From NCBI GenBank assembly GCA_041697335.1, contig JBGUGD010000009.1, positions 8,029 to 72,028 of the forward strand: 64,000 bases of DNA, written 5' to 3'. The notes beneath the pieces were generated by a model. It saw nothing but the letters and a program-made list of their open reading frames with translations, was not told where the DNA came from and ran no database searches. Positions 10,814-53,771 of the stretch are shown here, piece after piece (the first letter of the stretch is position 1; each line of letters begins with the position of its first letter). The translations under genes were made by a program, and so were the position numbers. This stretch comes from Vampirovibrionaceae bacterium NZW_1234. Lineage in GTDB: Bacteria; Cyanobacteriota; Vampirovibrionia; Vampirovibrionales; JAGQHJ01.

Positions 10814-11752
10814 ATGATGTCGGTATATAGTAGCAGTGCATTGCTGGTGCATTCTTTTTCAACAACGAAATTAATACGTGGGGTAGCATCTCAGTCCCAC
10901 ACGTCTAAAACCCGGTTTTCAAGTCAATCATCTTCAGTAGATCAGACTGATTTTTCGCCCTTGGCGCAGTCGGGCCTATTGCCTCGTCTGGTTAAAGCCG
11001 AAGAAGCTGCCCGCCAAGCCGGAGCGATTATTCGAGCCTATGCCCGGGGCGAGGTCGAGGCTCGGGGAATCACATTCAAAAACGGTGATGAATTGGTTTC
11101 TCATGCCGATAAAGAGGCCGATGCGAAGATTCTGGATATTTTGAAACAGGCCTTTCCCGAGGACGATTTTTTAACGGAAGAAACATTTGATCCGACACGG
11201 TCAACGGCCGTTCGGACCGGTTGGATTATTGATCCGCTGGACGGTACGCGCAATTTTACAGCCAGTATCCCACATTTTGCGGTTTCGATTGCCTATGTTA
11301 AAGATGGCAAGCCTGTGATTGGCGTAGTTTACGATCCCATGAGCGATGAATTGTTTTCGGCCGCTGCCGGACAACCCATGGTCAATAAACGGCCCATGAA
11401 AGTGTCCTCGGCAACCGAGGTTAAAGACACCGTTATATCGATGTGTAATCCCCTACCTGCAGGCTTTATGCAACTCAAAAAGCCCTCTCACCGTCGTCTC
11501 GGTTGCACGGCGTTGGATATGGCCTATGTGGCGGCAGGCCGCCTGGGGGCATCATGTGAACGAAACCTCAAGGTCTGGGACATTGCGGCAGGGATGGCCT
11601 TAGTCGAAGCGGCGGGTGGAAAAGTCACGGACTTTCAAGGCCAGCCTCTGGATTTGACTAAAATTCAAGGCCGGGTAAGTTATGTGGCCTCAAATGGTCC
11701 GTTACACCAAGCAATGTTGGCTTTGGTGGCAGAAGCTCCAGGCAAATCCTAG
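10814..11752 (+). CDS. Inositol monophosphatase family protein with a Ser-rich N-terminal extension
   Basis: WIIDPLDGT, EE and WDIAAG motifs; AAGGAG upstream of the ATG. Confidence 0.9.
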   Translation: MMSVYSSSALLVHSFSTTKLIRGVASQSHTSKTRFSSQSSSVDQTDFSPLAQSGLLPRLVKAEEAARQAGAIIRAYARGEVEARGITFKNGDELVSHADKEADAKILDILKQAFPEDDFLTEETFDPTRSTAVRTGWIIDPLDGTRNFTASIPHFAVSIAYVKDGKPVIGVVYDPMSDELFSAAAGQPMVNKRPMKVSSATEVKDTVISMCNPLPAGFMQLKKPSHRRLGCTALDMAYVAAGRLGASCERNLKVWDIAAGMALVEAAGGKVTDFQGQPLDLTKIQGRVSYVASNGPLHQAMLALVAEAPGKS

Positions 11753-11854
11753 CTGGAGTAAAGAGTCAATGTGATAAACCTCCATGTGGGTGTGGTACCT
11801 TTGTGGCACTATAAAACGATTACAAGTCAACAATGCCACCGGAGGATGCACTCA

Positions 11855-12721
11855 ATGGACTATGCCAATGCGGATGCCTTGATTACGACAGAGCAGCTCG
11901 CTGAATTGCTGGATTCAGAGACGCTTAAAGTGGTTGATGCCACCTGGACGATGCCGAATCAGACGGGTGATGCCAGGGCACAGTATTTGGAAGCCCACCT
12001 ACCCGGGGCGGTGTATTTCGATATTGATGCCATTGCCGACCGGAATACCGATCTGCCGCATATGCTTCCCTCCGCCGAGCTGTTTGCCGAACGAGTCGGA
12101 GCGATGGGTATTTCCAACGATCATCACGTGATCGTCTATGATCGGGCCAAAATGGCCAGTGCGGCTCGGGTGTGGTGGATGTTCAAGACCTTTGGCCACC
12201 GGAAGGTGTCCGTATTGCAAGGTGGGCTTACCCAATGGCAAGCGGAAGGGCGTGAGGTAACTCGTGAGATTCCAACGCCGTTGCCCGTTGTTTACCGGGC
12301 TGACCTTCAAAAAAGTTGGGTCTGGACATGGCAGGATGTTCAGGGAAACCTGACCCATCATGGCGCCCAAGTTGTGGATGCCCGTTCTTCCGGTCGTTTC
12401 TCCGGTATTGATCCGGAACCACGGCAGGTTCCCCGTCTGGGGCATATTCCAGGGAGTGTTAATCTGCCTTGGGATACGCTTTTGGTGCCTGAGACCTCAT
12501 CGATAGATACCGTGGACGGCTTAATCGCTCGTATCGCCCAGGCGGGTATCCCTATGACTTCACCAGTGGTTTGCTCTTGTGGGTCCGGGGTCACCGCATG
12601 TGTCGCTGCCTTGGCATTACATCTTGCAGGGCATCCTGCGGTTGCGGTGTATGATGGTTCCTGGGCCGAGTGGAGCCAGCGTCTGGAGTTACCTGTTGAA
12701 ACCGGAAAGACACCTGTTTAA
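11855..12721 (+). CDS. sseA: 3-mercaptopyruvate sulfurtransferase (tandem rhodanese)
   Basis: HLPGA, LPHMLP, ARVWW, GHIPGS, active loop CGSGVTA and YDGSWAEW. Confidence 0.93.
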   Translation: MDYANADALITTEQLAELLDSETLKVVDATWTMPNQTGDARAQYLEAHLPGAVYFDIDAIADRNTDLPHMLPSAELFAERVGAMGISNDHHVIVYDRAKMASAARVWWMFKTFGHRKVSVLQGGLTQWQAEGREVTREIPTPLPVVYRADLQKSWVWTWQDVQGNLTHHGAQVVDARSSGRFSGIDPEPRQVPRLGHIPGSVNLPWDTLLVPETSSIDTVDGLIARIAQAGIPMTSPVVCSCGSGVTACVAALALHLAGHPAVAVYDGSWAEWSQRLELPVETGKTPV

Positions 12722-12807
12722 GGTTTGTTTGCTTAGAGCAATCGCTCCGGCCAAGAGAAAGGCCTGCTATTAAAGTGATCAGACTCTGGTTTTAGGAACG
12801 ACAGCGC

Positions 12808-13533
12808 TTACTGAACAGGCCTGGGCTGTTGTATATTGTATTTCCGACTCAACGCTTGAATCCGGGATGTGCTGAGTGGATGGCTTTGCAGGAACTCAGG
12901 TGTTAAGCCGCGACTTTGACGTTGAAGAATGTTCAGCACTTCCACGGCAGCCTGTGGATTGTATTGGGCTTGCTGCATCAGTTGAATGCCCAGCTCATCG
13001 GCTTGGTACTCAATGTTTCGGGAGAAATGCTTGTCAATCAGCCCAAGTCCGACACTGTTAATAGCACCCAAAGCGGGGTTGTCCGAGACCATTCGCTCTC
13101 GAACCAGGTAATCCACGACACCCAGCCCTGTTCGTCGAAGGCGGGTTTTGTTGACGTGGTCTGCCAGAATATGCGCCAATTCATGGCCGATGACAAATGC
13201 TTTCTGGTCGTCTGTTTGAAGGGCCTGCATCATTCCAGAGGTTACTACGATGCGTTTGCCATCTGTATAGGCGTTCAGCGTATTGGAGGATTGAACACCG
13301 ATACTGCTGACCAGTTGATCGGGAATTTTATTTGCCTGTTTTAGGCGGCGTAAAATTGCAGCGGCCTCTTGTCGCTGTATATCAATTCGGCTGGTAATCG
13401 ATGTCTGCCGCGAGACATTCCCAAAAATCACCTGGGCCAGAGTTGGTGGCGTAGTGGCTTGTGATGGGACGACGACCGCCATGCCCATATTCAAACTGAG
13501 AACCAATAACAGACCGGAAATCAGCCGCTTCAT
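12808..13533 (-). CDS. Secreted M48 family zinc metallopeptidase
   Basis: Signal peptide, LNAY, HELAH, FSRNIEYQAD and FLQSHP motifs. Confidence 0.92.
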   Translation of the reverse strand: MKRLISGLLLVLSLNMGMAVVVPSQATTPPTLAQVIFGNVSRQTSITSRIDIQRQEAAAILRRLKQANKIPDQLVSSIGVQSSNTLNAYTDGKRIVVTSGMMQALQTDDQKAFVIGHELAHILADHVNKTRLRRTGLGVVDYLVRERMVSDNPALGAINSVGLGLIDKHFSRNIEYQADELGIQLMQQAQYNPQAAVEVLNILQRQSRGLTPEFLQSHPLSTSRIQALSRKYNIQQPRPVQ

Positions 13534-13871
13534 TGTTCACCTCGTCTTGTTGTTCCGCCATCATAGATCGAAGACAATGTTTCGCCCATGAATGCTTAAC
13601 GCTCGCTTGGAATCGCTTTCAAAATTAAAGACGATCGTCTCCAGAGAAGGTTCTTTCTCAGAATGATGCATATTCTAAGGATTCAAAAGAACTCAATTTG
13701 GAAAATAGAGTGAAACAGGTTGTAACAATGAGCATAAAATTGTCGTCAAATTTAAACTTTTTTTGTAAAATCGTTCAGTTCTATTCAGATAGTAGTCTCC
13801 TAGGATTCTGGTTGAGGGACCACGTTTGGGGTTGATATCCGCGATTGCCTAGGTGGGAAGGAAGGTTGATC

Positions 13872-16800
13872 ATGCGAGTCGAATGGATGCCATCGGGATT
13901 CCGTCCTGTCACGAAGGCCACAAAAATACAGCGCGCTGACGATCGTGATCATCAGCTGCCCCAGGCTTTCTCCGCAGGCTATTCTGGTCCAAAAGGCCCG
14001 ACATTGGCCCAATGTGCTAACGTCTTGCCGCTTTACTTTGGAGCGGTTAAAGGTGCCTCCAAGGTATCGTTTCCACGTGGAGTTTCATCCCAGGAAAAGG
14101 CCGTACTGACACGCATTGCCGAACTGAAAGGGGAAACACCCACCTTCCTGGAAGTTCTTGCAAAAGCCCGCCAGTTGGCCAGCAAAATGCAGCACGAGGA
14201 AGTCACACCGCTGCACTTGATGATGGTCCAGATGCAGCAATCCCTTGAGTTTTTGGATTCTGAAGTCCACGACGGCACACCACATAAAATCTACGAATCA
14301 CTCATTCCGGAATTTTTAGGCCATTCCAGCGATGGTGCCAATACACCCAATATTATCAAACTGAATATCAATGGTATTGTGATTCCCGAGCTTCAGAGAA
14401 CACTGAAATCCCTGCCGATGAGCGGGGTAAAGTCGAAAAATCCGCCATTAAGTCCGGCCCTGTTACAGGCCTTGGAAATCACACTGGATCGAATTGGAGA
14501 AGAAGCTGCAAAGTGGGCTCAGCGAACAAAGAATCGTATTGACTACGGGTCGAAGCAGGAAAAAATTGCTGAATTGCTGGAGGAAAAGAAACGATTATTC
14601 CGTAAGCTGCGTAACCCTGAGCCAGAGGCCATCATGGCAAAGCAGGCAGTGGATGCCGCACAAGCCCAAGTGGATATTGCCCAGGATGTTGTTCAGGGCA
14701 TTGCCGATAAATTGTGCAAGACGGTCTTTAAGAAACCCTACAATGCCATTGTCCGGGAAGCCAAAGCCATCGCAACTGCTATGGAAGCTGCCGGTGAGGA
14801 TCAGGAAAAACTTCAGGCGATTGTTCTGCGTCAAGTCGGACTCCAGGCAAAAAACAAGGAGTTGCAGGGTAAATTGGAACAGTATATTGCCCAGCATTAT
14901 CCCAAGGAGTACGGAACCCTCCAGGATGCCCAAAAGCTTCTGAAGGAAACCCACACGACTTATGAACCGCATTTTAAGCGTTTTCAGCGTATGGGTGCCA
15001 AAGCTACTGCAATAGGAAAGGAATACGAACGGTTTAAAGCAGGTATCCGTAAAGCCATGAAGACGGTCCGGAATGAGGACATTCTGACATCGCTGATGCA
15101 GGTCGCCGTTCAACAGGATTTGCCTTACGATTTGGCAAAAGAGCCGACAATCCATGCGACAGGAGAAATGTATCGTGGGTTTTTGGATAGCTTGATGGCG
15201 TCGGCCGGGGGTGGTTCCTTTATCAATCACGATATGGTGGATCGCTTGGGCAAGCAGGCCAAGACCCTGGGTGCCGGTGTCTCCCAGATTAAGCGGTTGG
15301 TCAGTATTGTGGGTGATGCCAAACGTGCAATCGACAGTAAGAATTCGACCCAGGCCAATCGCATTTTGCATTATGCCCGCCTCTACGCGGCAACCCCCTG
15401 GGAGCGCGAAGTCCAGGGACGTAAAGTCGATTGGGACAGAGCCAAGAGCCTGCTCTCACAAAACAGCCTGATTCCTGAGTCGGTGCGACAAAAAATTCTG
15501 GCGTATATTCAGATCGGCAATGAGCATGGCTGGGACAAAGCCCCGGTGTTGATGCTGACTGGCGGCTGGGGACAGCATGTGACCAAGAAAGCGGTCATCC
15601 AGACGCTGGGTACCATTTTGAAAATGCCAACCCATTATGCCCAGGCCGATCAGGTGTTGCCCATTGGGGCCAATGAAAATCGTTCCTCGGCGGATGTCGG
15701 GATGTCCATTCCTGTTCAGGCCGTTCTTGCGACCGGAACTACCCAGACGATGGTGGTTCTGGATAAGGCCGAAGAGTTTATCTATGACAGTGTTTATTCA
15801 CGGACCCAGTTGAACGATATTTTGTCCCTGTCCCGTCGTCAGCAGTTCCAGGATCCCTTCCTGCAAATGGGTGTGGATCTCGCTCCAATGGTCTTTGTGG
15901 CCACCTCTCCGGAACTGGATATCGAGACTCGGGACTACTTGTTTAACGATAAACATGTGTTTGCCGTAGATATGGATCACACGTTATCGGCGAGTGAAAA
16001 GGTGGCAGTCTTGGAAGCTCGTGTGGGCGAACTTCAGAAAGAAACCGGCACCCAGAATCTTAAAATTGATCCGGAAGCCCTCGAGACCCTCGCCAGAGAC
16101 CATACCTTTAGCGGCTTGACTGATGAGTTGGAACACAAGTTAAAGCTGGTTTTGAACAAAGCGTTTGCTCACTGTATTGAGGAATTCGGCAAACCGGTTC
16201 CCATGAAGGTGACCAAAGAAATGATCAAAACCTACCTCGGGGTGCCCGTGTCGATGTCCATGAGCCATGTGATGAACGAGGATGCCGTAGGGGATATCAA
16301 CGGGCTGGCGGCCTTCCCGGGATACAATACGGGGGCGGCAATTCAGATTCAGATTACGGAACTGAAGAAAACCAAACGGTCAAAAACCGATAAGGCCATG
16401 AAGTATCAGATTCATAGTGTGAATGGTCCTGTGGGCGATATGATGAAAGACTCTGCCCAGAAGGCCGTGGAACAATATCTGCTTCATGCCAATGCCCAGT
16501 ACAAGCGCCTAGCCACGGATATGCATAATTATCTGTTTGCCGTAAACTACCTGTCCGAAACAGAAGGGCCCAGCGCCGGTCTGGCCATGTCGGCTGCTCT
16601 GGTCAGCCGGATTTCAGGCATTCCTGTTCGCAAGGATGTGGCCATGACCGGAACCGTCGATGCTCGAGGGAATGCCGGTCAAATCGGCGGAGTCTATGAA
16701 AAGGTTCTCGGCGCTGTCGATACAGGCAAAATCAAAACCGTTCTGGTGCCTCGTATCAATTACGAAGAGCTAAAGCTGGAACATCCACGCGGGTTTGCCA

Positions 16801-16955
16801 AAATTCAACAACGGATAAACGTGATACCTGTTGATAATATGGATCAGGTATTGCGTCATACATTAGTAGACTACGACAAACTTCATGAGCCTGCTCCAGC
16901 AGGGATGTCACGTCGAACCAAACCTGCACCGGCTACAGGCTCCGGAAAGAGATAA
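13872..16955 (+). CDS. Lon (S16)-like protease with Clp-N-like N-terminus, coiled coil and degenerate AAA+ module
   Basis: C-terminal EGPSAG (catalytic Ser), AMTGTVD and IGGVYEK (catalytic Lys). ARQLASKMQHEEVTPLHL resembles a Clp-N repeat. Walker A/B are degenerate. Confidence 0.8.
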   Translation: MRVEWMPSGFRPVTKATKIQRADDRDHQLPQAFSAGYSGPKGPTLAQCANVLPLYFGAVKGASKVSFPRGVSSQEKAVLTRIAELKGETPTFLEVLAKARQLASKMQHEEVTPLHLMMVQMQQSLEFLDSEVHDGTPHKIYESLIPEFLGHSSDGANTPNIIKLNINGIVIPELQRTLKSLPMSGVKSKNPPLSPALLQALEITLDRIGEEAAKWAQRTKNRIDYGSKQEKIAELLEEKKRLFRKLRNPEPEAIMAKQAVDAAQAQVDIAQDVVQGIADKLCKTVFKKPYNAIVREAKAIATAMEAAGEDQEKLQAIVLRQVGLQAKNKELQGKLEQYIAQHYPKEYGTLQDAQKLLKETHTTYEPHFKRFQRMGAKATAIGKEYERFKAGIRKAMKTVRNEDILTSLMQVAVQQDLPYDLAKEPTIHATGEMYRGFLDSLMASAGGGSFINHDMVDRLGKQAKTLGAGVSQIKRLVSIVGDAKRAIDSKNSTQANRILHYARLYAATPWEREVQGRKVDWDRAKSLLSQNSLIPESVRQKILAYIQIGNEHGWDKAPVLMLTGGWGQHVTKKAVIQTLGTILKMPTHYAQADQVLPIGANENRSSADVGMSIPVQAVLATGTTQTMVVLDKAEEFIYDSVYSRTQLNDILSLSRRQQFQDPFLQMGVDLAPMVFVATSPELDIETRDYLFNDKHVFAVDMDHTLSASEKVAVLEARVGELQKETGTQNLKIDPEALETLARDHTFSGLTDELEHKLKLVLNKAFAHCIEEFGKPVPMKVTKEMIKTYLGVPVSMSMSHVMNEDAVGDINGLAAFPGYNTGAAIQIQITELKKTKRSKTDKAMKYQIHSVNGPVGDMMKDSAQKAVEQYLLHANAQYKRLATDMHNYLFAVNYLSETEGPSAGLAMSAALVSRISGIPVRKDVAMTGTVDARGNAGQIGGVYEKVLGAVDTGKIKTVLVPRINYEELKLEHPRGFAKIQQRINVIPVDNMDQVLRHTLVDYDKLHEPAPAGMSRRTKPAPATGSGKR

Positions 16956-16986: not shown

Positions 16987-18111
16987 TTATGGTGCAGCCG
17001 CTTCTGTCCTGGAGGTGGTTTCGGCCAGTTGGCGCCGAATAATGGCGAGGTTGGCTGACGCCATATCGCGCATGTCTTTGGGGGTTTCAGACAAGGTGAG
17101 GTAATTTTCATAAAGCGTTTGTGCTCGGGCCAATTTTTGTTTACCCAAATCAACCTGTCCGTTAGTCATATCGTCGTTACCTGCCAAGCCCAGGGAGCCT
17201 GCTAAAAAAAACTGGGCACTATCCTGGTAATGGCTTGGCAAGGTCTTTAAAGATTTTTCAAGGCTTTCAATGGCTAAGGGGAATGACTTTAACCGATAGG
17301 CACTGACACCAATATAATAGGCAATATAGGGATCCTGGGGATAATAGGTTTCCGCTTTTTTAAAATACGTCAATGCATGTTGATTTTGGTGCTGCTCCAA
17401 ATACGTATAGCCTCTTGAAGCCGCTTCCCGATAGCGCTGGTATCGAGCAAAACTGATGCCGACCGGATTCGTAATATCCGGTTTTAAGGCATACAGGGCT
17501 TTCATTGTGGCAATATCCCGGGGAGAGAGGTGAGTAACCTGAGGCTGAATAATGGGGTACATGATATCGGATTTATTGGGGCTATGGCCTTTAATGCCCA
17601 AGGCATGCCCAATTTCATGAAGAGCAGTGGCGTACAACATGGCGTTGTCCATCTGGGTCTTCTGGGGATTGCGAAGGCTGAGAACGACGTGTGTATCAGT
17701 CAGGGTTTGGGTGACTTTGTTCCAGGAATCTTTAGTGACACCCACGGTTTCACCCTTGGCATCCAACTGCCAGTTGACCAGCAGATCGGTTTCGTAGGGC
17801 GAGCTTGTATAGACAAATCGAAAGCGCGGGTGCATGGCACGTTCCCACTCGGAAAATGCGGATTTCACCAGGGCATCTTTTACGGGGCTCCAGCCAGGGA
17901 CTTTAAAGCCCGGCTGAATGTTGATACGAAGGGTCGTGGTGCTGTCATTCCAGCGAGAAACATAGCGGCCTTCGGCAAGAACCGCGTTTAAATAGGTCTC
18001 TATCGGCTTGGCTGATTTTCCGGGGGAGGTCGCTCCAATGCCAAGATCGTAGAGTCCCGCAGCGAGGATGACAATGAGGGTGATTATAAGCGTGAAACGG
18101 TGTAAAGCCAT
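16987..18111 (-). CDS. Matrixin-like (M10) metalloprotease with C-terminal TPRs
   Basis: HEIGHALGIKGHS plus Met-turn DIMYP, an N-terminal signal/TM helix and TPR-like helices. Confidence 0.9.
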   Translation of the reverse strand: MALHRFTLIITLIVILAAGLYDLGIGATSPGKSAKPIETYLNAVLAEGRYVSRWNDSTTTLRINIQPGFKVPGWSPVKDALVKSAFSEWERAMHPRFRFVYTSSPYETDLLVNWQLDAKGETVGVTKDSWNKVTQTLTDTHVVLSLRNPQKTQMDNAMLYATALHEIGHALGIKGHSPNKSDIMYPIIQPQVTHLSPRDIATMKALYALKPDITNPVGISFARYQRYREAASRGYTYLEQHQNQHALTYFKKAETYYPQDPYIAYYIGVSAYRLKSFPLAIESLEKSLKTLPSHYQDSAQFFLAGSLGLAGNDDMTNGQVDLGKQKLARAQTLYENYLTLSETPKDMRDMASANLAIIRRQLAETTSRTEAAAP

Positions 18112-18309
18112 ACAAACCTGTTTAGAAATTGAAAACGTCATTTTGACATTTGACATCATACGATGGCGAGGGCCATAAGCATCTCCATTAACCAATGGAG
18201 GTTATTGCGATAGGTCCTAAGGTATAGTGAACCATGATGAAGACTCTGGGGCTTTTCTACCCATGAGTAGTATGTCCCCGTTGAGTGAGAGAGAAAAAAG
18301 GGTTAATCG

Positions 18310-20301
18310 ATGTTTGAACGCAATATGGCGCTACTGTCCCAATGGCAACCAGCTGTGAGTCAGCGAGTAATGGCCACTCCCATGAGTGACGAGACCGTGT
18401 TGTTCCGAAAAGATGATGATTCGGATGTGAATCTGGCTTTTAAAGGTGAAGCCCTTCACAATATCGATAACCCGCGTCTGGAAGCGGCTGAGATTTTCGA
18501 AGGCACTGTTCCCGACGATCAACGGTCGGAGCAAAGCCTGGTTTTTCTTTTTGGCTTAGGGTTAGGCTATTTATTACGCTATGCGTTTCTGAACTGCAAA
18601 GGCAATATTATTGTCTATGAACCTTTTCCCGAGGTTCTTCGGATGACCCTGGAAGCCGTGGATTTTACACAGGAGTTGTCTTCCAACCGAGTGCGGATTA
18701 TCACCCAGTACGAGGATTTGGAAGAAGCTGTACGCAAAACTTTTTTAAACGGCGATGCCGTCCATTACCTGACGCTGCCGTCCTATGAGAAAGCGATGCC
18801 GAATCAGGCTCAGCAGATGCTTCAGGGGTTGCAAGACGTGCTCACGGCATCGGCAATGAATCAGCAAACCGTGTTGCAACACATGCATGAGTTTACTCAG
18901 AATGCCTTAAAAAACTTACCCCACATCCTCAAGTATCCCGATGTCGGACTCATCCAGAATACGCTGCAGGGAAAACCGGGAGTTCTGGTTTCAGCCGGAC
19001 CTTCACTGGATGTTCCTGGGGTGCTGGATACGTTAAAAGCTATTCGGGATCATGTGGTGGTCGTGTGTATTGGACAAGCGGCAAAAGCACTGGATAAAGC
19101 CGGTATTGTGCCGGATTTTGTGGTGATTGTCGAAACCAAGGATGTCACATCCCAATTGCAGGACGTGTCATTCTGCAAGGATGTGACCTTGGTAACCCAG
19201 CCCCAGGCCCATGCCAAGGTCTTCCAATTGCCCACCAGGCAAAAGCTGATGTCGTTTAATGAAGGCCATCAAATCACCCATTGGTTATCCAAGATTTCGA
19301 CCAAACCCCTTTTGGCTCATGATCAACAAGGAACTGTGTCCATTACGGCGTTACTGCTGTTACTTGATCTGGGATGCAACCCTATTTTCCTTCTGGGTCA
19401 GGATTTGGCGTGTCCGGATGGAAAGATGTATGCGCAAAACTCCGTCTATCAAAATTGCCGATTCATCTTGCTGGAGGGCAAGCAGAAGCTGGTCTTCATG
19501 GACAACAAGGAGACATTTTTCGGAGTTGAAGGGTACCTTGACGATCAGGAACACTGGCATAAACGCTATCGCTTTGACTTTGGAGGTCCCATTGCCAAAA
19601 CCAAAGGTTGGAATGGAGAAGAGATCTTGAGTCAACGTTCTTATAACAGTTTCCGGGTTTCTTTCGAGGCCATGGTGACTAAATTCCCGAATACTACCTT
19701 TGTGAATTGCTCCGAGGGCGGTGCCTTCATTCATGGGTATGAGCACATGCCCTTCTCCCAAGCCGTTCAAGCTTATGCTGTTAACCAATATAATACCCGG
19801 GCGGAACTCGCCGAGATTCTTGCGAGCAGATATGCTGAAGAGCCGGTAGACGGCACAAAATTCAAACGGGTCTTCGAGTTGTATCAGCGGGATCGGGCTG
19901 AGCTGGAAGAGCTGGCCCAGGCTCTGGAAGCAGGCATGAATCTCGGACAGAAAATCCTCAGTGAGCTTGCCACGCGAAAAGCCCTGACTCATTCTATCCA
20001 AGGTCTGATTCGCAAGTTGGACCAGTGCAATCTGGTAATGACACGAGTCACCAAAAACAATATGCTGTTGAACGATTACATCTGCAACGACCTGATGTTA
20101 TTTGAACAGATGTATGGTCGTCGCATGAATCGGCCTCAGGAGGAATTCCGTTCGGAAGCGGAAGAAATGCTTGAAAACATTGAGAGCAATATGTTCCTGT
20201 TTCAGGCGATCGAAAACGGTCGTCAACGCTTGATCCAGGTACTGGATGAGTCCTTCCGGAATTTTCCGAGAAATGGTTCTCCTCAGGTGGTCCCTGTCTA
20301 G
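18310..20301 (+). CDS. Motility-associated factor (Maf/DUF115) flagellin glycosyltransferase-like protein
   Basis: FGLGLGY, YEP, VSAGPSL, GCNPIFLLGQDLA and NCSEGGA motifs. Confidence 0.85.
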   Translation: MFERNMALLSQWQPAVSQRVMATPMSDETVLFRKDDDSDVNLAFKGEALHNIDNPRLEAAEIFEGTVPDDQRSEQSLVFLFGLGLGYLLRYAFLNCKGNIIVYEPFPEVLRMTLEAVDFTQELSSNRVRIITQYEDLEEAVRKTFLNGDAVHYLTLPSYEKAMPNQAQQMLQGLQDVLTASAMNQQTVLQHMHEFTQNALKNLPHILKYPDVGLIQNTLQGKPGVLVSAGPSLDVPGVLDTLKAIRDHVVVVCIGQAAKALDKAGIVPDFVVIVETKDVTSQLQDVSFCKDVTLVTQPQAHAKVFQLPTRQKLMSFNEGHQITHWLSKISTKPLLAHDQQGTVSITALLLLLDLGCNPIFLLGQDLACPDGKMYAQNSVYQNCRFILLEGKQKLVFMDNKETFFGVEGYLDDQEHWHKRYRFDFGGPIAKTKGWNGEEILSQRSYNSFRVSFEAMVTKFPNTTFVNCSEGGAFIHGYEHMPFSQAVQAYAVNQYNTRAELAEILASRYAEEPVDGTKFKRVFELYQRDRAELEELAQALEAGMNLGQKILSELATRKALTHSIQGLIRKLDQCNLVMTRVTKNNMLLNDYICNDLMLFEQMYGRRMNRPQEEFRSEAEEMLENIESNMFLFQAIENGRQRLIQVLDESFRNFPRNGSPQVVPV

Positions 20302-20363
20302 CACGACCCGGGTGAGCTACATCGCCGTAAAAAACCAAAGAGAGATTTTATGAGGAGAAGCAG

Positions 20364-21461
20364 ATGAGTGACAAGACCATTGGCATTATTGTGGCTCGGA
20401 TGACATCAACCCGTTTGCCCGGAAAATCTTTGGTTGGCATTCATGGGCGTCCCTTGCTCAGTTATCATGTAGAACGCTTAAAGGCGTGTAAAGGCTTTGA
20501 TGAGCTATGGTTGGCGACCACTCGGGATGATGCCGATACTCCTCTGGCCCAGTGGGCAGAAGCCCAAGGAATTCTTGTGTATCGCCATGCCGGGGATAGC
20601 AACGATGTTGTAGGGCGCCTGACGGCCACGGTAAGGCAAGCACAGGCCACTCAATTTGTCTTTGTCTTGGGAGATTCCCCGCTGGCCGATCCGTTTTTAC
20701 TGGATCAGTATGTCGAGACATTGAACCGGCATCCAGATTGGGAATATGTTGTGCTGCTCGATGACGAACTGGCTGGAAAAGTGGAGGCTGCCTATTGTGG
20801 TACCGGATGCTATCGTACACAAGGCTGGTTAAAAGTTGATGCGGCCTCCAATACGCCCCATTATCGAGAACACCTGGGGAGTGTCCTTCGGGAGAATCCA
20901 TCACTGGTTACTATGGGCTCAATGCGTCTTCCGGATTTGTATTATGAAGGTCCCTACCGACTGAGCATTGACACTCAGGCCGATGTGGATTTCTTTAATG
21001 CGGTGTTCTCGGCATTAAAGAAACCCGATAGCATGGTGACCATGGCGGATGTGCTGACCTACCTGAGAGAACATCCTGAGGTTGTGGCGATTAACAAGCA
21101 CGTTCGTCAAAAGCAGGTTCATGAAAAGACCAACACCTTTTTGTTCTGGGTGGATGCCGATGTTCCCGATTCGTGTGAACCCCGGATCCGGGAATTGGCC
21201 AAAATGCTGGAAGAGGTATTTTCTGTTGGCATTCAGTGGGTGCGTCCTTCTCAAATCCCGGTGAAAAAACAGGCGGTACTCCCGGTAAAACCGATCTCAA
21301 AATGCATTGTAATCTCAGCAGAGTCTCACATTCACCAGGACGTGCAACGCATTTTGTCAGAGGTACCTGAGATTCCCCTTATCGGGATTAGGCCCGAAGC
21401 CATTCCGCAGGATGCACAGCGGCTCAAACAGATGGGATATGATCTACTCACAGCAACCTGA
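20364..21461 (+). CDS. SpsF/PseF-like acylneuraminate cytidylyltransferase family protein
   Basis: ARMTSTRLPGK, ATT...D, DVVGR, GDSPL, REH and RLSIDTQAD motifs. Confidence 0.85.
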   Translation: MSDKTIGIIVARMTSTRLPGKSLVGIHGRPLLSYHVERLKACKGFDELWLATTRDDADTPLAQWAEAQGILVYRHAGDSNDVVGRLTATVRQAQATQFVFVLGDSPLADPFLLDQYVETLNRHPDWEYVVLLDDELAGKVEAAYCGTGCYRTQGWLKVDAASNTPHYREHLGSVLRENPSLVTMGSMRLPDLYYEGPYRLSIDTQADVDFFNAVFSALKKPDSMVTMADVLTYLREHPEVVAINKHVRQKQVHEKTNTFLFWVDADVPDSCEPRIRELAKMLEEVFSVGIQWVRPSQIPVKKQAVLPVKPISKCIVISAESHIHQDVQRILSEVPEIPLIGIRPEAIPQDAQRLKQMGYDLLTAT

Positions 21462-30947: not shown

Positions 30948-31697
30948 CTACCACTGCCCGTTTTGGGTCTCGGCAATTTTCTGAAGTTCTTTTTCAACTT
31001 CCTGATAGCGATCCGAGTATTTGCCGCGTGAGGTTGTGGTAACCGGAATAAAATACATCCCCGACAAATTGCCGTTACCATCATAAATGTACTGTGGAAT
31101 CATGGTGGTCGTTTCCTCATCTTTCGGAAACTGATTGACCAGTTCCTGAAGCAAGGTTTTGATGGCAGGATCAAGGGCCGTGTCGTTCTGAAGTGTGGTC
31201 ACAGCGTTTTTAGAGGCGGCAACCACGGCATCGGAATCCCTCAGCCCGGCAATTGTCCATAGAATTTTCTCCGCAGGGTGGCCCGGCAATTTCGCCACTT
31301 CTTCAATGACAAAGGCCCGAATCTTTTCATTTTGATGCCGATGATAGGTATTCAAATACTCGAACGAACGCTGAGGGTTGTTCTCAGAAACGACTTGGGA
31401 GTAGGTCTGGGTGAAGCGGTTAAATTCCTGGGTGGAGCGGGGCGTAAGCCCGCCATTCACGCCAATCAGGACGCCCGTCGCCACGACCAGGGGGAGCCAT
31501 AGATTCTGGCGCAGGGTTTGTCCAATCTTTTGGAGGCCTCCAAAGCGGAGTCCCGAAACGTGAGGTTCAGACCCGACAGCTTGCGGCCGACGTATAAAAA
31601 CGTCTTTGGCTTTCGTTTGATTGGGCAGAACGCTTGGTTGATGTATTACACTCGACTTGGTTGAAAAAAAATGCTTTGTCTCGACAACCTGTATCAT
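30948..31697 (-). CDS. Hypothetical membrane-anchored protein with HEAT-like helices
   Basis: Low-complexity leader ending LRFGG, one TM segment (LWLPLVVATGVLIGV), then a helical domain. Confidence 0.65.
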   Translation of the reverse strand: MIQVVETKHFFSTKSSVIHQPSVLPNQTKAKDVFIRRPQAVGSEPHVSGLRFGGLQKIGQTLRQNLWLPLVVATGVLIGVNGGLTPRSTQEFNRFTQTYSQVVSENNPQRSFEYLNTYHRHQNEKIRAFVIEEVAKLPGHPAEKILWTIAGLRDSDAVVAASKNAVTTLQNDTALDPAIKTLLQELVNQFPKDEETTTMIPQYIYDGNGNLSGMYFIPVTTTSRGKYSDRYQEVEKELQKIAETQNGQW

Positions 31698-42223: not shown

Positions 42224-43732
42224 TTAAACGTTCACGAAACGGGTTTGGGTTTGCCCTTGTAATGCTTTAAAGGGGCTGTTTTGAGCAGTCATTTGAAAGC
42301 TTCCCAACGGGGAGGGTTGAGGTTTTACAGGGGCTGGTTTTTTCATGTCGTTTTTGAATTTCTCGGGCACCGGGCCGCGAATACGAGTCAGGAACATAAA
42401 GGCCGTGCTGGCGACAAATGCACTGAGGGCAGCAAAACCGGTTAATGCAAAGGATCCGAGATAGCCAAGCCGCTGAACGAAGGGTAACTTGCTGACCAGC
42501 ATAAAGGTGGCAGCTGCGGGAATAATACCCAGATACGCCGGGGCAATCATTTCACGTGACGTCCCGCGCTCTTTCACCAGTTGACGCTGGTAGGGTTGCA
42601 GGAACTTGGCGTCAAAGGTGTTGGCCAACAGACCGTACATCAGGAAGACGCCGATGATGCTGATAGGCAGCTTCAACCAGAAGCCACTGCCTTCAAAGAC
42701 TTTGGCCAATTTCACCATCTTCAGTTTGCTGGCGCCCAACTCCTTGAATAAATTGGCTGTGGCGGGCGAAACCTGTTTTTCATGGCGAAACAGCGGAAAG
42801 ATGATGTGCTTGTTGACTTCCTGCACCAGTTGTTCCGGTGTGTAGTTGGGTCCCTTGAAGAACTTGCGGAGCCAGCCGATGGGATTGCGGGTAAATTTAT
42901 AGGAGTCGCCTTTAATGTAACGGACCAGTTGAACGTCGTTCATGGAAGCCAGTTTTTTAATGAAGGTGCTGTTCTTTGTGGCCGGATGTTTCGCCAGCAT
43001 GTTAAGGCGGCGGCGTAGGGATTGCAATGCGTTATCACTGGCTTCTTTCAATATTTTGGCACTATCTTGCTGGTTTTTTCCCTTGAGGGATTTCCGGACA
43101 TTGCTCATGACCTGACTTTCATCCAGCTTGTTGAACAGGCTGAAATACCGCTCTTGGCGCCCCAGGTGCTTTTTCAGCAACCTGGCTTCTTCCTTGGACA
43201 GATTCAAATGTTTATCAATGTACTGTGGGGTGTTCATGATCCGGCGCAGATGTTTGGCCAGATCCTGGGTTGCCGTGATTTCTTTTTTAATTTCCTTGTG
43301 CAGGGCGCGGTTCTTGGGAGAGTATTGCACTGCTTCTTTCAGCTTGGCTTGTAGCGCCGGGATGTCACTGGTTTCCAAAAGATCGGGAACCATATAGTAA
43401 CTGCGCGAACTGACAATACTCCCCATCATTTTGCCTCGCAGGCTCTTGGGGACTTCTTTCAGGCCAAGCTTGTCCAGTTCCAGGAATTTCATAAACTGGG
43501 GCATGACATAGATCTTTTCCGCCCAACGGTAAGTGCATTCCATGACATAGGCATTGGCCCAGGGCATAAACGTATCCCGCCACAGGTAGTCGATTTTCCG
43601 ATCGTTGGGGACGGCTTGGGGCATGCCGAAATCTTCGGACGACACCCGGGCAATGCCTCGGATATAGGAACCAAAGTTCCCCATCTGGGTCAGAATACGG
43701 CCAGCCATAACCGGGTTTACGAGGAAGTTCAT
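42224..43732 (-). CDS. Hypothetical Lys-rich multi-pass membrane protein
   Basis: 502 aa with three C-terminal hydrophobic segments; 4-bp ATGA overlap with the upstream gene. Confidence 0.75.
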   Translation of the reverse strand: MNFLVNPVMAGRILTQMGNFGSYIRGIARVSSEDFGMPQAVPNDRKIDYLWRDTFMPWANAYVMECTYRWAEKIYVMPQFMKFLELDKLGLKEVPKSLRGKMMGSIVSSRSYYMVPDLLETSDIPALQAKLKEAVQYSPKNRALHKEIKKEITATQDLAKHLRRIMNTPQYIDKHLNLSKEEARLLKKHLGRQERYFSLFNKLDESQVMSNVRKSLKGKNQQDSAKILKEASDNALQSLRRRLNMLAKHPATKNSTFIKKLASMNDVQLVRYIKGDSYKFTRNPIGWLRKFFKGPNYTPEQLVQEVNKHIIFPLFRHEKQVSPATANLFKELGASKLKMVKLAKVFEGSGFWLKLPISIIGVFLMYGLLANTFDAKFLQPYQRQLVKERGTSREMIAPAYLGIIPAAATFMLVSKLPFVQRLGYLGSFALTGFAALSAFVASTAFMFLTRIRGPVPEKFKNDMKKPAPVKPQPSPLGSFQMTAQNSPFKALQGQTQTRFVNV

Positions 43733-44862
43733 GCGTTAACCCTCCGCCCGGTTGGGACCGATTGAATGAGCGAATTCATACGCTTCTGGAAGCCCGTGGC
43801 ATCATCGTCATCATCACCGGTTTTGGGTTTGAGCTTGGTCTTGGGTACCAGGTGCTTATCCAGAGGGGCGATAAACATAAAGACCAGCTTTTGCAGGAAG
43901 ACGCCGACAACAACGGCCATCAGGAGTGCGGCAGCCATAACCGACATGATTTTGGTGGACGAGATCCGTTTGGAAATCTGCTCAATGCTATCGATTTTAC
44001 GAATCAAATTCTTTTGCCAACCTTTCTTTCGGGCAGCCTGGAGTAACTGATCCTCGGCACTGAGTCCGCCCGTCAACAGGCCGGTCAACTTCGAGGGATT
44101 CTTCCAGAAATACGTGATCCGATTCATCAAGCCTTGCGGTGCCGGATTGATTTTCGGGCGATTTTTATCGGTAAAGAGTTTATTGATGAGGGAATTTTTG
44201 TAGACAATCAGCTTGTTCTGTTCATTCACATCAATTTTGGACCATAAGGCTTTTTCGGCTGCTTTCGCCAGTTCAGCGGAACGTTTTGCCGGGTCTCCGC
44301 TTAGTTTAACGCCCAAGGGGCTCAGATTGATTCCGGCTTCTTGGGCGATGGCAAGATAATTGGCGGTGGGACGCATCGAGTTGACGGTGGTTAACAAGAA
44401 CTGCTTGGGGTGTTTCACGAAATACATCAGGCGGTACATGGGATTGTTCTTCATTCGAAGCAGTTCTGCCTGGGGCACAATAGTATTCACCGGGACACGG
44501 GGCTTCATAAACTGATTAAACCCGGGGTTAAAGCCGTATTTGTCGTGCTTACCGACCAGCGTTACACCCAGCATGCCAAGCCAGATGACGATGTTCCGGC
44601 CCCACGTTTCAAAGGGGTGCTGGCGGTACTTGATGGCCATAATGCCTTGAGGAATGTAGATGGTCCAGACCATCAGGCGGTTTGAAAAATCTTCGATGGA
44701 CATCCCGCCCACGTTCACATTGACGGGCTGGGGCAATTTCTGGAATAACCAGTCCGAAAGTCCTGCGGAGAAACGCGTATGAGTGGCTTGCTGTGGCTGT
44801 GGCCGAAGCGCATGTCCCCCTTTGGTGTTATTTCCCGGTAAGGTAATACCCCGTGTTAGCAT
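43729..44862 (-). CDS. Hypothetical membrane protein with an RFS-ending leader
   Basis: 377 aa with 2-3 hydrophobic segments. Confidence 0.75.
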   Translation of the reverse strand: MLTRGITLPGNNTKGGHALRPQPQQATHTRFSAGLSDWLFQKLPQPVNVNVGGMSIEDFSNRLMVWTIYIPQGIMAIKYRQHPFETWGRNIVIWLGMLGVTLVGKHDKYGFNPGFNQFMKPRVPVNTIVPQAELLRMKNNPMYRLMYFVKHPKQFLLTTVNSMRPTANYLAIAQEAGINLSPLGVKLSGDPAKRSAELAKAAEKALWSKIDVNEQNKLIVYKNSLINKLFTDKNRPKINPAPQGLMNRITYFWKNPSKLTGLLTGGLSAEDQLLQAARKKGWQKNLIRKIDSIEQISKRISSTKIMSVMAAALLMAVVVGVFLQKLVFMFIAPLDKHLVPKTKLKPKTGDDDDDATGFQKRMNSLIQSVPTGRRVNA

Positions 44863-44906: not shown

Positions 44907-44934
44907 TAAAAACAGAACAAAGAAAAAATTGTCC
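44907..44934 (-). promoter_or_regulatory. Putative alternative-sigma promoter GGACAA-N15-GTTTTTA
   Basis: About 45 bp upstream of 44862. Confidence 0.55.
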
Positions 44935-48862: not shown

Positions 48863-48871
48863 GAAGACGGC

Positions 48872-49605: not shown

Positions 49606-50487
49606 ATGAGTTCTGCCACACTGTTGGATGGAAAAGTAGTATCGCAACGATTACTGGATCAGGTCCGCGAGGAGGTGGATGCTCTGGTCGGCCGTGCCCG
49701 GCCCAAGCTTGTGGCCGTCATTGTCGGCGAGGACCCGGCGAGCGAAGTGTACGTGGGACGCAAAATGAAAGTCGCTGCGGAAGTCGGGATTGAGTCCGAG
49801 TTATTGCGCTTTCCCGCGTCCATTCAAGAGTTTGAACTCCGGGAAGAACTGCAGAAGTTGAACAACGACCCGTCGGTTCACGCCATTCTGGTCCAACAAC
49901 CCTTTCCCAAGCATATTCGCACCAATGTCATCGTCGAAACCATTTCTCCGGAAAAAGACGTCGATGGCTTTCATGCCGAAAGCATCGGCAATCTGGTTCT
50001 GGGCGTCGAACCTGCCGCCATGGCCTGCACTCCGGCGGGGATTATTCACCTGCTGGATGCCTATGAAATCAACCTCGAGGGCATGCGTGCCGCCGTGGTG
50101 GGGCGCTCCAATATCGTGGGCAAGCCCATCAGCATGATGCTCCTCCATCGCAACGCCACGGTCACCATGTGCCACAGCCGCACCCATGGCCTGGATGACA
50201 TCTTGCGCCAATCCGATTTGATTGTGGCAGCCGCAGGCCAGCCGGGCCTCATCCGGGCCGAATGCATCAAGCCGGGGGCCGTCGTGGTGGATGTGGGCAT
50301 CAACCGCCTCCCCAACGGCAAGCTCACCGGCGATGTGGATTTTGAAGCGGCCTGCCAGCATGCGGGCTACATCACCCCCGTTCCCGGCGGGGTCGGCCCT
50401 ATGACCATTGCCATGCTCATGATGAACACCGTCCGCCTGTGCAAGCAGCAACAAGGCCTCCGCCTCTCCAGCCTGCTTTTTGCTTAG
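49606..50487 (+). CDS. folD: Methylene-THF dehydrogenase/cyclohydrolase
   Basis: KDVDGFH, CTPAG, GRSNIVGKP, DVGINR and TPVPGGVGPMT. Confidence 0.97.
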   Translation: MSSATLLDGKVVSQRLLDQVREEVDALVGRARPKLVAVIVGEDPASEVYVGRKMKVAAEVGIESELLRFPASIQEFELREELQKLNNDPSVHAILVQQPFPKHIRTNVIVETISPEKDVDGFHAESIGNLVLGVEPAAMACTPAGIIHLLDAYEINLEGMRAAVVGRSNIVGKPISMMLLHRNATVTMCHSRTHGLDDILRQSDLIVAAAGQPGLIRAECIKPGAVVVDVGINRLPNGKLTGDVDFEAACQHAGYITPVPGGVGPMTIAMLMMNTVRLCKQQQGLRLSSLLFA

Positions 50488-52319: not shown

Positions 52320-52461
52320 GGAATCATGGCTGTTTCATTATCCTACGATTCCGTCCGCTGTCCCTCCTCTGTCGTTAGGGGATTCGTCGCGACACCAGGT
52401 CGAGCAGGATGAGTGCGAGACACATCGTTAAATTGGGTGGATGGCGGTTTTCAGGACGAGG

Positions 52462-52899
52462 CTAGCCTTGCTGCATCAGGGTGTCGATTGTTTCGACTTC
52501 GGCCAGAAGGCGTTCTTTGTATTGCTCCGGGGTTTCCTCGTTATGCGGGTGTTCCTGATAGTTCACAAAGCCCATGGGGGATAACACCAGTTTGCGTCCC
52601 GGCGCTTCTGCATATTCTTTCGGGGGCAAGACACCTTTCACATAGGCTCTGGCATTGGTATGTCCCCGCCAAGTGGTAATTTCGATGCCCACCAGAGGGT
52701 AGTCGCCCGGTTTGGCTTTCACCACGGCGCCAACCTCATCGGCAACCCGCTGAAAAGTATCCTGGTCTGCCAGGGCCTGTGGTCGTTTCGGATCCCGCTC
52801 CGGGTTGCCGTGAAACGAATCCGACCGATCCAAATCCGAGACCTTCACGGAAACCTGCCCTGAAAAGCGGGGGCGCAGAGGCGAGATGGCGGATGTCAT
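52462..52899 (-). CDS. Hypothetical protein with a short RFSG leader
   Basis: 145 aa with GGAG RBS. Confidence 0.7.
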   Translation of the reverse strand: MTSAISPLRPRFSGQVSVKVSDLDRSDSFHGNPERDPKRPQALADQDTFQRVADEVGAVVKAKPGDYPLVGIEITTWRGHTNARAYVKGVLPPKEYAEAPGRKLVLSPMGFVNYQEHPHNEETPEQYKERLLAEVETIDTLMQQG

Positions 52900-52964
52900 A
52901 GATAAAAAACTCCAAAAGTGGCCGGTAACGATGCGAGAAGCATATCACCAGCACTGTTCAGAAT

Positions 52965-53771
52965 CTAGGATTCCATATCCTCGTATATTTTCCGAAAGTC
53001 GGCTTCGTTGCAGCCAAAGGCCTTGGCTAGATCTTGGCCGATTTTATTGATGCGCGAGCTGGGATGGCCCGTTAATGTCAGAATAGTGAAGCTCAGATCC
53101 TTTTGGAGCTGATAGGATAAGTCTTTAAACAACTTGGCCTCCCGCATTTTCAAAAGCAGATTACTGCCGTTTTTCGCCCAACTGTGTGCAAAGCGAACCA
53201 TCGGGGACTGGTTCTTTTGGGGAATGTTCTCAAGCAGGACATCCGACAAGGTCGCCATGGTTTTGGCCACTTTGTAAGGGCTGGCGTTGGTCGGTATTTG
53301 GCCAAGGGCGGCATCGACCTGTTCGGTTTGGCCGGTTTGGCGCCCGATATATTTGACGAAACGGGTCATGATCTCGGCCATCTTGACGTTGCCGGGGGCC
53401 AGGGCTTTTTCATAGAATGCGGGTTTGGGGAGTAATTTTTGCTTCAGTCTCTGTAGGAACGAATGGGATTTGTAGGCCCACAGCATATGACCGGCAATTT
53501 GAATCGGGAGTGCCAAAAAGCCGGTACCCAGGGTCACCAGGCCCAACACGCTTCCAATGACGACGTGTCCCGAAATGGAAAACACCAGCGGGTGGGTCAA
53601 CATGCTTTTGATGCCGTTACCCAGCCACCGAAAAAACGAGGGCCGCTCCTGGGTCTGCTTGGATTCCGGGTTTGCCGAAAACTGCAGCGATGGGCGCCCG
53701 GTGGACACGGCTTTTTGAGATGCCGTCCGATGGGTAAGGGCTGTGAAGGGGGCTTGTGGGGAAATGTGCAT
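52965..53771 (-). CDS. Hypothetical membrane protein with a QFS-ending leader
   Basis: ATG 53771 follows GAGGA; hydrophobic hairpin (ISGHVVIGSVLGLVTLGTGFLALPIQI). Confidence 0.7.
   Translation of the reverse strand: MHISPQAPFTALTHRTASQKAVSTGRPSLQFSANPESKQTQERPSFFRWLGNGIKSMLTHPLVFSISGHVVIGSVLGLVTLGTGFLALPIQIAGHMLWAYKSHSFLQRLKQKLLPKPAFYEKALAPGNVKMAEIMTRFVKYIGRQTGQTEQVDAALGQIPTNASPYKVAKTMATLSDVLLENIPQKNQSPMVRFAHSWAKNGSNLLLKMREAKLFKDLSYQLQKDLSFTILTLTGHPSSRINKIGQDLAKAFGCNEADFRKIYEDMES

Follow-up and report, generated by a model that had tools for sequence, protein, structure and literature searches.

A short N-terminal tag with the consensus [Ser]-[Pro/Val/Leu/Ile]-Arg-Phe-[Gly>Ser,Ala,Gln] marks 216 of the 2988 predicted proteins (7.2%; weight-matrix score of at least 12) of Vampirovibrionaceae bacterium NZW_1234, a relative of cyanobacteria that does not photosynthesise. 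A first-pass annotation of a 64,000-nucleotide stretch of this genome (hereafter the window; C9:8029-72028 of assembly G000) had described a leader ending in (R/Q/Y)-F-(S/G) on six unrelated proteins, as a candidate export or targeting signal. Our results demonstrate a real, translated N-terminal tag that is under selection at the protein level, can be carried by unrelated protein families, and is confined to one order. Four of the original six proteins score as members of the tag set; the restriction of the signal to six proteins did not hold, as the tag marks about 200. A literature search found no description of such a motif.

The assembly comprises 3.70 Mb in 41 contigs, with about 50% G+C, and is 94.75% complete. 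All proteome counts are based on 2988 genes (83.5% coding) from a crude codon-usage caller of our own making, which takes the first ATG, GTG or TTG in each open frame as the start and thereby over-extends some genes. The weight matrix was refined from the N-terminal motif sites and scans the first 80 residues, start Met included, at a threshold of 12. Since it was trained on the same data that it counts, the controls with plain patterns are the independent evidence.

The motif and its controls

In the first 60 residues of the 2988 proteins, [RKQYL]F[GS] was observed 496 times, compared with 291±17 in 60 shuffles. The whole excess stems from the Arg form: RF[GS] was observed 244 times (58±7 in the shuffles) and [PVLI]RF[GS] 160 times (16.9±3.6), whereas Gln-Phe, Tyr-Phe, Lys-Phe and Leu-Phe followed by Gly or Ser stayed at shuffle level (z -1.6 to 1.4). 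The enrichment on which the first-pass annotation had made its proposal depend is thus present, but the Arg form alone is responsible for it, and of the proposed (R/Q/Y)-F-(S/G) the Arg part stands while the Gln and Tyr parts have no statistical support.

The motif is concentrated at the beginning of the proteins and in the reading frame. The density of RF[GS] per 1000 residues was 1.67 at residues 0-20, 1.51 at 20-40, 0.94 at 40-60 and 0.59 at 60-80, and about 0.4 deeper in the chain. Within the first 70 codons, [PVLI]RF[GS] occurred 178 times in frame, compared with 42 and 31 times in the two other frames and 98 times on the opposite strand (three frames summed); only 56 internal in-frame sites were found in about 730,000 residues. 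Because the excess is confined to one frame, the motif is read in frame. The weight matrix gave a similar picture: among the 1235 proteins of at least 340 residues it found 94 N-terminal hits, versus 2 and 1 in two internal stretches of 80 residues.

The sequence requirement is strict. For [PVLI]xF[GS], the ratio of the N-terminal to the internal rate was 10.8 with Arg at x, and 2.6, 2.6, 1.7 and 1.1 with Lys, Ser, Gln and Tyr, respectively. For the residue after Arg-Phe, the corresponding ratios were 14.5 (Gly), 5.9 (Ser), 5.5 (Ala) and 4.9 (Gln). No residue substitutes for the Phe, and Arg-Phe is nearly invariant. The N-terminal sites are flanked by Ser at -2, Pro, Val, Leu or Ile at -1, and Ser, Ala or Gly at +3, and the same flanks were not seen around internal RF[GS] sites. 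The codons chosen for the motif Arg, Phe and Gly match genome usage, which argues that selection acts on the protein; a DNA-level origin of the motif was ruled out by the codon usage together with the frame controls. A second [RK]F[GSAQ] within the first 110 residues was found in 29 of the 216 tagged proteins (about 11% expected), so that there is no clear excess of tandem tags.

Distribution among relatives

The tag had been expected to be lineage-specific, and it is. In five genomes of the same order, from each of which 167-284 kb were sampled, 6 of 213, 4 of 131, 7 of 162, 2 of 163 and 0 of 152 genes were tagged, i.e. four of the five carry it. In 200 kb from one genome of each of four other orders of the class, the counts were 0 of 150, 1 of 188, 0 of 167 and 0 of 164, and the sole match is a native nucleotide-binding loop.

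The set of tagged proteins turns over quickly. Among the 19 tagged proteins of the relatives, 11 have no homologue in the present genome; of the other eight, four have a tagged homologue here, and one corresponds to the Lon-like variant discussed below. Across homologues the Arg-Phe stays aligned while the leader varies. For a tagged tandem family on contig C37, a homologue search found only the query and its paralogue, and this family and that of the variant protein starting at 53771 in the window, the two tested, are orphans in collections of billions of proteins. Taken together, the cargo is a fast-changing cohort of orphans and spare enzyme copies outside the Sec route, as one would expect for a sorting tag.

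Translation of the leaders

The first-pass annotation had named true start codons downstream of the motif as a finding that would overturn its proposal. The leaders are in fact translated. For the 118 leaders of 20-60 codons, the mean codon score was -0.03 in frame and -0.60 and -0.37 out of frame, and -0.59 for the in-frame stretch upstream of the start; the best-scoring frame was the reading frame in 80% of them. A Shine-Dalgarno-like site precedes the start in 55% of tagged genes, a normal frequency compared with 50% of other genes and 15% of internal ATG codons. Moreover, in all 38 tagged genes that have the promoter-like element described below, the element lies upstream of the motif.

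There are grounds for suspecting an artefact, in which genuine translation would begin downstream of the leaders, or chance or composition would account for the motif. The first-start rule over-extends some genes, the promoter-like element falls within the called leader in 3 of the 38 genes, and an in-frame ATG follows within 40 codons of the motif in 100 of the 216. However, only 24 of the 216 have such a downstream ATG with a Shine-Dalgarno-like site, the frame, position and shuffle controls reject chance, the in-frame coding signal and the ribosome-binding sites are those of translated sequence, independent gene calls in public collections keep the leaders, and homologues conserve the motif. 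We regard this explanation as largely refuted and its remaining likelihood as close to nil.

Proteins of the window

On translation, the six open reading frames, their start codons and all Phe positions quoted in the first-pass annotation proved correct: F35 in an IMPase, F33 and F56 in a Lon-like protein (ATG 13872), and F52, F31, F12 and F31 in the proteins starting at 31697, 44862, 52899 and 53771, respectively, which we name by these positions. Pfam and NCBIfam assigned families only to the IMPase and the Lon-like protein and none to the other four; searched with NCBIfam models, the six leaders gave no match at E up to 0.01. The claim of a Phe-motif leader is upheld by the matrix for the IMPase, 31697, 44862 and 52899, but not for the Lon-like protein and 53771, which do not score.

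The IMPase-family protein (312 residues; 10814..11752, + strand) bears the tag T-R-F-S-S at residues 33-37 (bases 10910-10924; score 18.9). Its Inositol_P domain (Pfam; residues 62-303) lies behind a disordered leader of about 45 residues, and in the AlphaFold2 model residues 1-45 have a predicted local distance difference test score (pLDDT) below 50, while the enzyme fold is confident. Two untagged paralogues, of 39% and 31% identity, are encoded in the same genome. Alignment of orthologues agreed with a lineage-specific extension, but only partly with the motif. The four closest homologues (52-60% identity) all have unconserved N-terminal extensions of 50-90 residues, and more distant ones, some of them labelled Vampirovibrionales and Vampirovibrio, start at about residue 57 of the query; the RFG form occurs in only one of the four (IRFGA), and two others have the looser PAFAG and LHFRG. 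A related-locus search with the IMPase returned distant homologues from other phyla alone, in which the leader is not present.

Among the other members, 31697 (30948..31697, - strand) is an orphan with one predicted membrane helix and the tag L-R-F-G-G at residues 50-54 (bases 31536-31550; score 13.4). The protein 44862 (43729..44862, - strand) is a membrane protein of no known family, with T-R-F-S-A at residues 29-33 (bases 44764-44778; score 16.4), and the Atlas clusters closest to it bear the label Candidatus Melainabacteria. These labels place the lineage in Melainabacteria, and its assignment to an order is tentative. At the tag site, the sequences ARFRG, MRFKG (with the Arg at residue 2) and VAFSG are aligned in three homologues; within the family the Phe is invariant, Arg-Phe is aligned in three of the four members, and the leader ranges from 0 to about 35 residues. 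The small orphan 52899 (145 residues; 52462..52899, - strand) has P-R-F-S-G at residues 10-14 (bases 52858-52872; score 20.7), and its Atlas look-up gave chance-level scores only (0.80).

The Lon-like protein (13872..16955, + strand; listed at 13845-16955) has a Lon_C match at residues 788-1008, the S16 protease domain, and no AAA domain was reported by Pfam. Its leader holds the variants QAFSA (bases 13962-13976) and LYFGA (bases 14031-14045), and a top matrix score of -0.5 statistically excludes the protein from the tag set. When its relatives in the order were compared, as the first-pass annotation had suggested, N-terminal Phe motifs were found in five genomes: PRFAS and IYFGAS (G020), LRFGQ (G018), PRFGY (G025), VLFSG (G012) and VKFGAG (G004). 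A paralogue on contig C29 of the present genome has LRFGE. Since RFG-type forms occur among these relatives, the copy in the window probably bears a decayed or looser form of the tag. There are two more Lon-like paralogues in this genome and three in G020. A TPR protein (16987-18195, - strand) adjoins the Lon-like gene on the opposite strand.

Finally, 53771 (52965..53771, - strand) is an orphan with a two-lobed hydrophobic stretch of about 40 residues and the variant L-Q-F-S-A at residues 29-33 (bases 53673-53687). The matrix does not score this variant, the genome as a whole shows no excess of QF[GS], and the membership of 53771 in the tag set is unproven. No homologue was found among 1.84 billion representative proteins except the protein itself, and this public self-match has 268 residues, equal to a start at ATG 53771.

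Leaders and cargo

Measured from the called start, the motif lies at a median distance of 25.5 residues; the 5th and 95th percentiles are 5 and 62 residues, and the overall span is 3 to about 70 residues. Ser, Pro, Arg, Thr and His are over-represented in the leaders, and acidic residues are scarce (Glu 1.8% versus 6.0% in the proteome; Asp 2.7% versus 5.3%). A hydrophobic 12-residue segment (mean Kyte-Doolittle value of at least 2.0) was found in 2% of the 158 leaders of at least 14 residues. The description of these leaders as acid-poor and free of a Sec-type core was therefore accurate.

The depletion of Sec features extends beyond the leader. A signal-peptide-like or membrane-like stretch of 15 residues follows the tag within 60 residues in 5% of tagged proteins, compared with 20% of other proteins that have such a stretch in their first 70 residues, and a membrane segment is present in 14% of tagged versus 31% of other proteins. 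The part after the tag has a median isoelectric point (pI) of 8.1, compared with 6.2 in other proteins, and contains 0.52% Cys instead of 0.98%. An upstream spacer of more than 100 bases precedes 75% of tagged genes and 57% of the others.

The cargo is diverse. A Pfam search of 82 tagged proteins returned 76 families, nearly all with a single member, among them aldehyde dehydrogenase, RtcB, DUF885, M16 peptidase, lactate/malate dehydrogenase, CinA, ribose-phosphate pyrophosphokinase, enoyl-CoA hydratase, guanylate kinase, Lon_C, AAA ATPases and FliW. Of 20 tagged proteins checked singly, half had no Pfam family, and the other ten were M16, ClpB-like AAA, NAMPT/NAPRTase, isochorismatase, adenosine deaminase, enoyl-CoA hydratase, alpha/beta hydrolase, TPR, HEAT and PALP proteins. 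Paralogues exist in the genome for 74 of the 216 tagged proteins, and many of them are untagged, which agrees with the earlier suggestion that the leader is added even to enzymes.

Part of the cargo appears to have a coherent function, which is suggested by several tagged proteins being enzymes of NAD and nucleotide salvage. These comprise NAMPT/NAPRTase-like, isochorismatase/nicotinamidase-like and adenosine-deaminase-like proteins, CinA, ribose-phosphate pyrophosphokinase and guanylate kinase. The salvage loci listed, all outside the window, are C37:127898-129694, C37:141086-142021, C5:213851-216118 and C25:35135-36052.

A promoter-like element

CAA-N15-GTTTTTA had been noted upstream of 44862 and 53771, and we read it at both places: ACAATTTT-N-GTTTTTA at 44907..44932 (- strand), about 45 bases upstream of ATG 44862, and GCAA-N-GTTTTTA at 53827..53852 (- strand), upstream of ATG 53771. 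The latter ends 2 bases before TTG 53825, which favours ATG 53771 as the true start, in agreement with the public gene call. As an exact unit CAA-N15-GTTTTTA was rejected, since it precedes only 2 of the 216 tagged and 10 of 2703 other genes, and the real unit is GCAATTTT-N10-T-N-GTTTTTATT. At a matrix score of at least 14, this fuller element lies within 200 bases upstream of 163 genes, versus 42 in the reversed-orientation control, and its start is a median of 75 bases from the start codon. Tagged genes account for 35 of the 163 (21%), compared with 7.2% of all genes. Most other element-bearing genes encode low-complexity proteins rich in Gly, Asn, Gln, Tyr and Pro and without signal peptides. 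The element probably marks the regulon of an alternative sigma factor.

Candidate export machinery

The secretion systems of the genome, which the first-pass annotation had left to be checked, include two flagellar-type type III cores. VirB4, VipB (PF05943) and phage-sheath genes gave no match in this 94.75% complete genome. One TatC gene is present. There are two secretins, neither beside the type III sets; one lies in a Tad/Flp pilus locus (G000 C2:140729-150242) as that locus's own secretin, and one elsewhere.

Both sets of FlhA, FlhB, FliP, FliQ, FliR, FliI and FliF genes are of the flagellar type. The first lies within a complete flagellar complement, which includes the hook, the junction, both the L and the P ring, and three flagellins. 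The second (C32:8784-20950, C8:66046-68072 and C29:178730-180600; outside the window) is also complete as a core, with rod, MS-ring, C-ring, ATPase and gate genes, and has its own FlgB, FlgC, FliE, FliF, FliG, FliH, FlhA, FliI, FliPQR and FlhB, with FlhA between fliH and fliI, a FliA/WhiG-like sigma factor beside flhB, and a lytic transglycosylase. Hook or filament genes proper to the second set were not found, and the whole genome yielded a single hook gene and a single FlgK gene. The lytic transglycosylase (C32:18041-18655, - strand) begins MFNTSVSFTRFSAG, has no Sec signal, and carries TRFSAG with a score of 11.3, just under the threshold of 12; its counterpart beside the rod genes of the first system has no such motif.

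Both FlhA types and the second FlhB are present in all 31 sampled genomes of the order. Two full FlhA genes also occur in other orders, including G031, in which 0 of 150 sampled genes are tagged, and the second system is therefore older than the tag. When residues 1-45 of 52899 were folded together with the cytoplasmic part of the second FlhB (24 aligned sequences), the complex prediction returned no answer and counts neither way. Of 41 genomes of the class, the present one alone was found to have a protein of 168 residues that is encoded behind the second fliI, and this protein is uninformative.

C39 peptidases (PF03412) were considered as a general reader of the tag and rejected, since they were not found in the tag-bearing relatives G003, G004 and G020. 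They occur in 7 of the 31 genomes of the order, with seven matches here against none or one in each of the 30 relatives. The C39-like loci listed (C37:142858-144627, C16:4114-4509, C5:228486-228863, C14:49684-50067, C17:11267-11665 and C4:52497-52922) encode mostly stand-alone proteins of 256-389 residues; one frame is interrupted by TAA, and the one on contig C17 is itself tagged.

Comparison with known signals

Neither of the classical export signals describes the tag. Sec signal peptides of types I and II have a hydrophobic core of about 7-15 residues behind a short charged start, and only 2% of the 158 leaders showed such a core. Tat signals resemble the tag in being an N-terminal motif of Ser, Arg and Phe, and TatC is encoded here. 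However, the Tat motif is S/T-R-R-x-F-L-K, whereas the tag has a single Arg directly followed by Phe and preceded by Pro, Val, Leu or Ile, and the hydrophobic region that follows in Tat signals is missing after the tag in 95% of cases. Type IV prepilins have Gly directly before Phe or Met and then about 20 hydrophobic residues; in the tag the order is Phe and then Gly, and no hydrophobic stretch follows. Double-glycine leaders, which are exported by peptidase-containing ABC transporters, are likewise short and N-terminal, and in the tag, too, a Gly with Gly, Ala or Ser behind it is a frequent ending. C39 peptidases are the classic leader-removing enzymes for such Gly-Gly-type sites; the residue after Gly in the tag is variable, the classic hydrophobic positions are lacking, and the tag occurs in G003, G004 and G020, where no PF03412 match was found.

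The closest likeness in composition is to type III and flagellar signals, which are also N-terminal, disordered, rich in Ser, Thr and Pro, acid-poor, without a hydrophobic core, and placed on unrelated cargo. The leaders agree with this both in composition and in disorder (pLDDT below 50 for IMPase residues 1-45), and two apparatus cores are encoded. The tag differs in its nearly invariant Arg-Phe and in a frequency that does not depend on the presence of a second FlhA. It differs, too, from the gate-recognition motif of flagellar substrates, given in PMC8983047 as F-x-x-x-hydrophobic.

In its manner of use, the tag would work like the marker motifs that unite unrelated effectors, while its composition recalls both type III signals and organellar targeting peptides. 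Such markers include the chaperone-binding motif of Shigella and Salmonella, MIX, FIX and RIX of type VI secretion, RxLR of oomycetes, and PEXEL of Plasmodium. All are, like the tag, short N-terminal motifs on many unrelated, fast-evolving proteins of one lineage. Their sequences are different, however; RxLR and PEXEL follow a signal peptide, which the tag does not, no chaperone-like neighbours of the tag were found, and the type VI component VipB (PF05943) was not detected. Mitochondrial presequences and plastid transit peptides are also acid-poor, hydroxylated, unstructured leaders on second copies of metabolic enzymes; close to the junction they, too, have an important Arg and an aromatic residue, and M16-type peptidases are encoded here. 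The spacing from Arg to Phe differs from that of known processing motifs, the bacterium has no organelle, and the likeness implies no import machinery.

Possible functions of the tag

We consider the tag to be, with a likelihood a little short of even, a lineage-specific sorting tag for export by a non-Sec route. A shared putative receptor would read it as a short linear motif, and a route distinct from both Sec and Tat would withdraw tagged proteins from the general pool in the cytoplasm. The cargo, fast-turnover orphans together with second copies of IMPase, lactate/malate and aldehyde dehydrogenase, RtcB, salvage enzymes, M16, Lon-like and ClpB-like proteins, would then act in another compartment. 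With Vampirovibrionales as the nearest named relatives, the most plausible place would be the cell's surroundings or the inside of prey. The lineage is probably predatory. We infer a type III reader because, apart from Sec and Tat, the two flagellar-type cores were the only systems found whose N-terminal signals need no hydrophobic core, and we would grant this route about a third of the credence given to export itself. The fuller form of this proposal, in which the tag is the export signal of the second apparatus and some 200 proteins, including orphan membrane proteins, parallel enzymes of NAD and nucleotide salvage, proteases and unfoldases, would be delivered into prey, seems to us rather unlikely.

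Several points weigh against export. The receptor, cleavage and export are all putative steps. About 5% of tagged proteins bear the tag before an apparently ordinary signal peptide or lipobox (e.g. RFGARRSGW...LSGGC), which fits a cytoplasmic function equally, and many cargo domains are those of typical cytoplasmic enzymes. Small acidic chaperone-like proteins are not in excess among the neighbours (11 of 429, versus 127 of 2988 overall). The promoter-like element is common to only 16% of tagged genes. Type III signals are not known to share a sequence consensus. Moreover, all 31 genomes of the order have both FlhA types, yet none of the 152 sampled genes of G005 is tagged. With no tag in the sample from G031 either, despite both FlhA types, tag load does not track the type III genes, and a link between the two can only be inferred. 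As to the counts, they rest on a crude caller and on a matrix trained on the data counted, and some hits, just above the threshold, are native internal motifs (chorismate synthase, ribosomal protein L14).

The main rival keeps the cargo inside the cell. The tag would be a cytoplasmic short linear motif that binds a shared partner (an unfoldase, an adaptor of a protease or a regulator of one life stage, for example), and the cohort would be degraded, sequestered or activated together, for example at a life-cycle switch. A position between 3 and 70 residues from the start suits a linear motif within a disordered tail, tags in front of a signal peptide or lipobox are readily accommodated, and much of the cargo consists of cytoplasmic-type enzymes, with Lon-like, ClpB-like and M16 proteins themselves in the set. 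The subset with the alternative promoter element also looks like a stage-specific regulon. However, such a motif does not predict the depletion of Sec and membrane features, the low Cys content or the basic pI of the cargo. Orphan cargo is exchanged as quickly from genome to genome as secreted repertoires are, and no degron system is known to mark 7% of a proteome by one strict motif. We hold this explanation to be doubtful, though still the strongest of the alternatives.

Less probable again is that the motif is a processing site, the leader being a propeptide cut by a lineage-specific Arg-Phe-Gly/Ser protease of the M16 insulinase type or subtilisin-like. This could happen with or without export and is compatible with the export proposal. 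The leader before the motif is unconserved and of 0-70 residues, the motif precedes the folded domain by 8-20 residues in the tagged copies of IMPase, dehydrogenase, RtcB and aldehyde dehydrogenase, and large M16 peptidases and a mycosin-like S8 protease are encoded. An acid-poor, Ser/Thr-rich leader with a key Arg also recalls organellar presequences, which are cut by M16 enzymes; mitochondrial processing sites, however, have Arg-x-Phe spacing, whereas here Arg stands directly beside Phe. Cleavage is predicted only, C39 peptidases were found in 7 of the 31 genomes and not in three tag-bearing relatives, and the conserved domain of the 44862 family begins at the motif itself. The most far-fetched of these functions is an address read on the prey side, where the leader would mimic a plastid or mitochondrial transit peptide and send predator enzymes into an organelle of algal prey. 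The Ser/Thr/Pro/Arg-rich, acid-poor, unstructured leader and its Phe-Gly core resemble plastid transit peptides, the cargo resembles a parallel metabolic set, and the cultured member of the Vampirovibrionales, the nearest named relatives, is described in PMC4451040 as preying on Chlorella. Still, this is pure analogy: transit peptides are not known to have a strict Arg-Phe-Gly consensus, algal prey is only presumed for this organism, and a delivery route would still be needed, so that we give the idea very little weight.

If this is a sorting tag, a one-line sequence rule would list every protein that a little-known lineage exports or re-targets. As this lineage has almost no cultured members, a cargo list of about 200 proteins here, and a different one in each genome, would make its biology directly testable. 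The strict consensus should also make the receptor easy to find, which consensus-free type III signals never allowed. The likeness to organellar targeting peptides, in the sister group of the plastid ancestors, bears on the origin of transit peptides. Should the type III proposal be true, no earlier signal of that class would have had so strict a consensus, and bacteria of the lineage that is sister to the plastid ancestors would have their own equivalent of targeting by transit peptides. If the tag instead serves in the cytoplasm, as a degron or in regulation, it would still be unusual for 7% of a proteome to be under the control of a single motif.

Further observations

Four small contigs (C11, C33, C36 and C40; about 3-4 kb each) have 34-39% G+C, compared with about 50% in the rest of the assembly, and may be mobile elements or mis-binned DNA. 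In the window, a subtilisin-like protease (24165-25637, + strand) had its best NCBIfam match in the mycosin model of type VII secretion, with 158.6 bits, below the cut-off of 278.75, and showed a weaker likeness to cyanobactin maturation proteases. At 18310-21461 (+ strand) lie a PseD-like flagellin-modification gene and a gene resembling sugar-nucleotide cytidylyltransferases, whose sequences hint at flagellin glycosylation.

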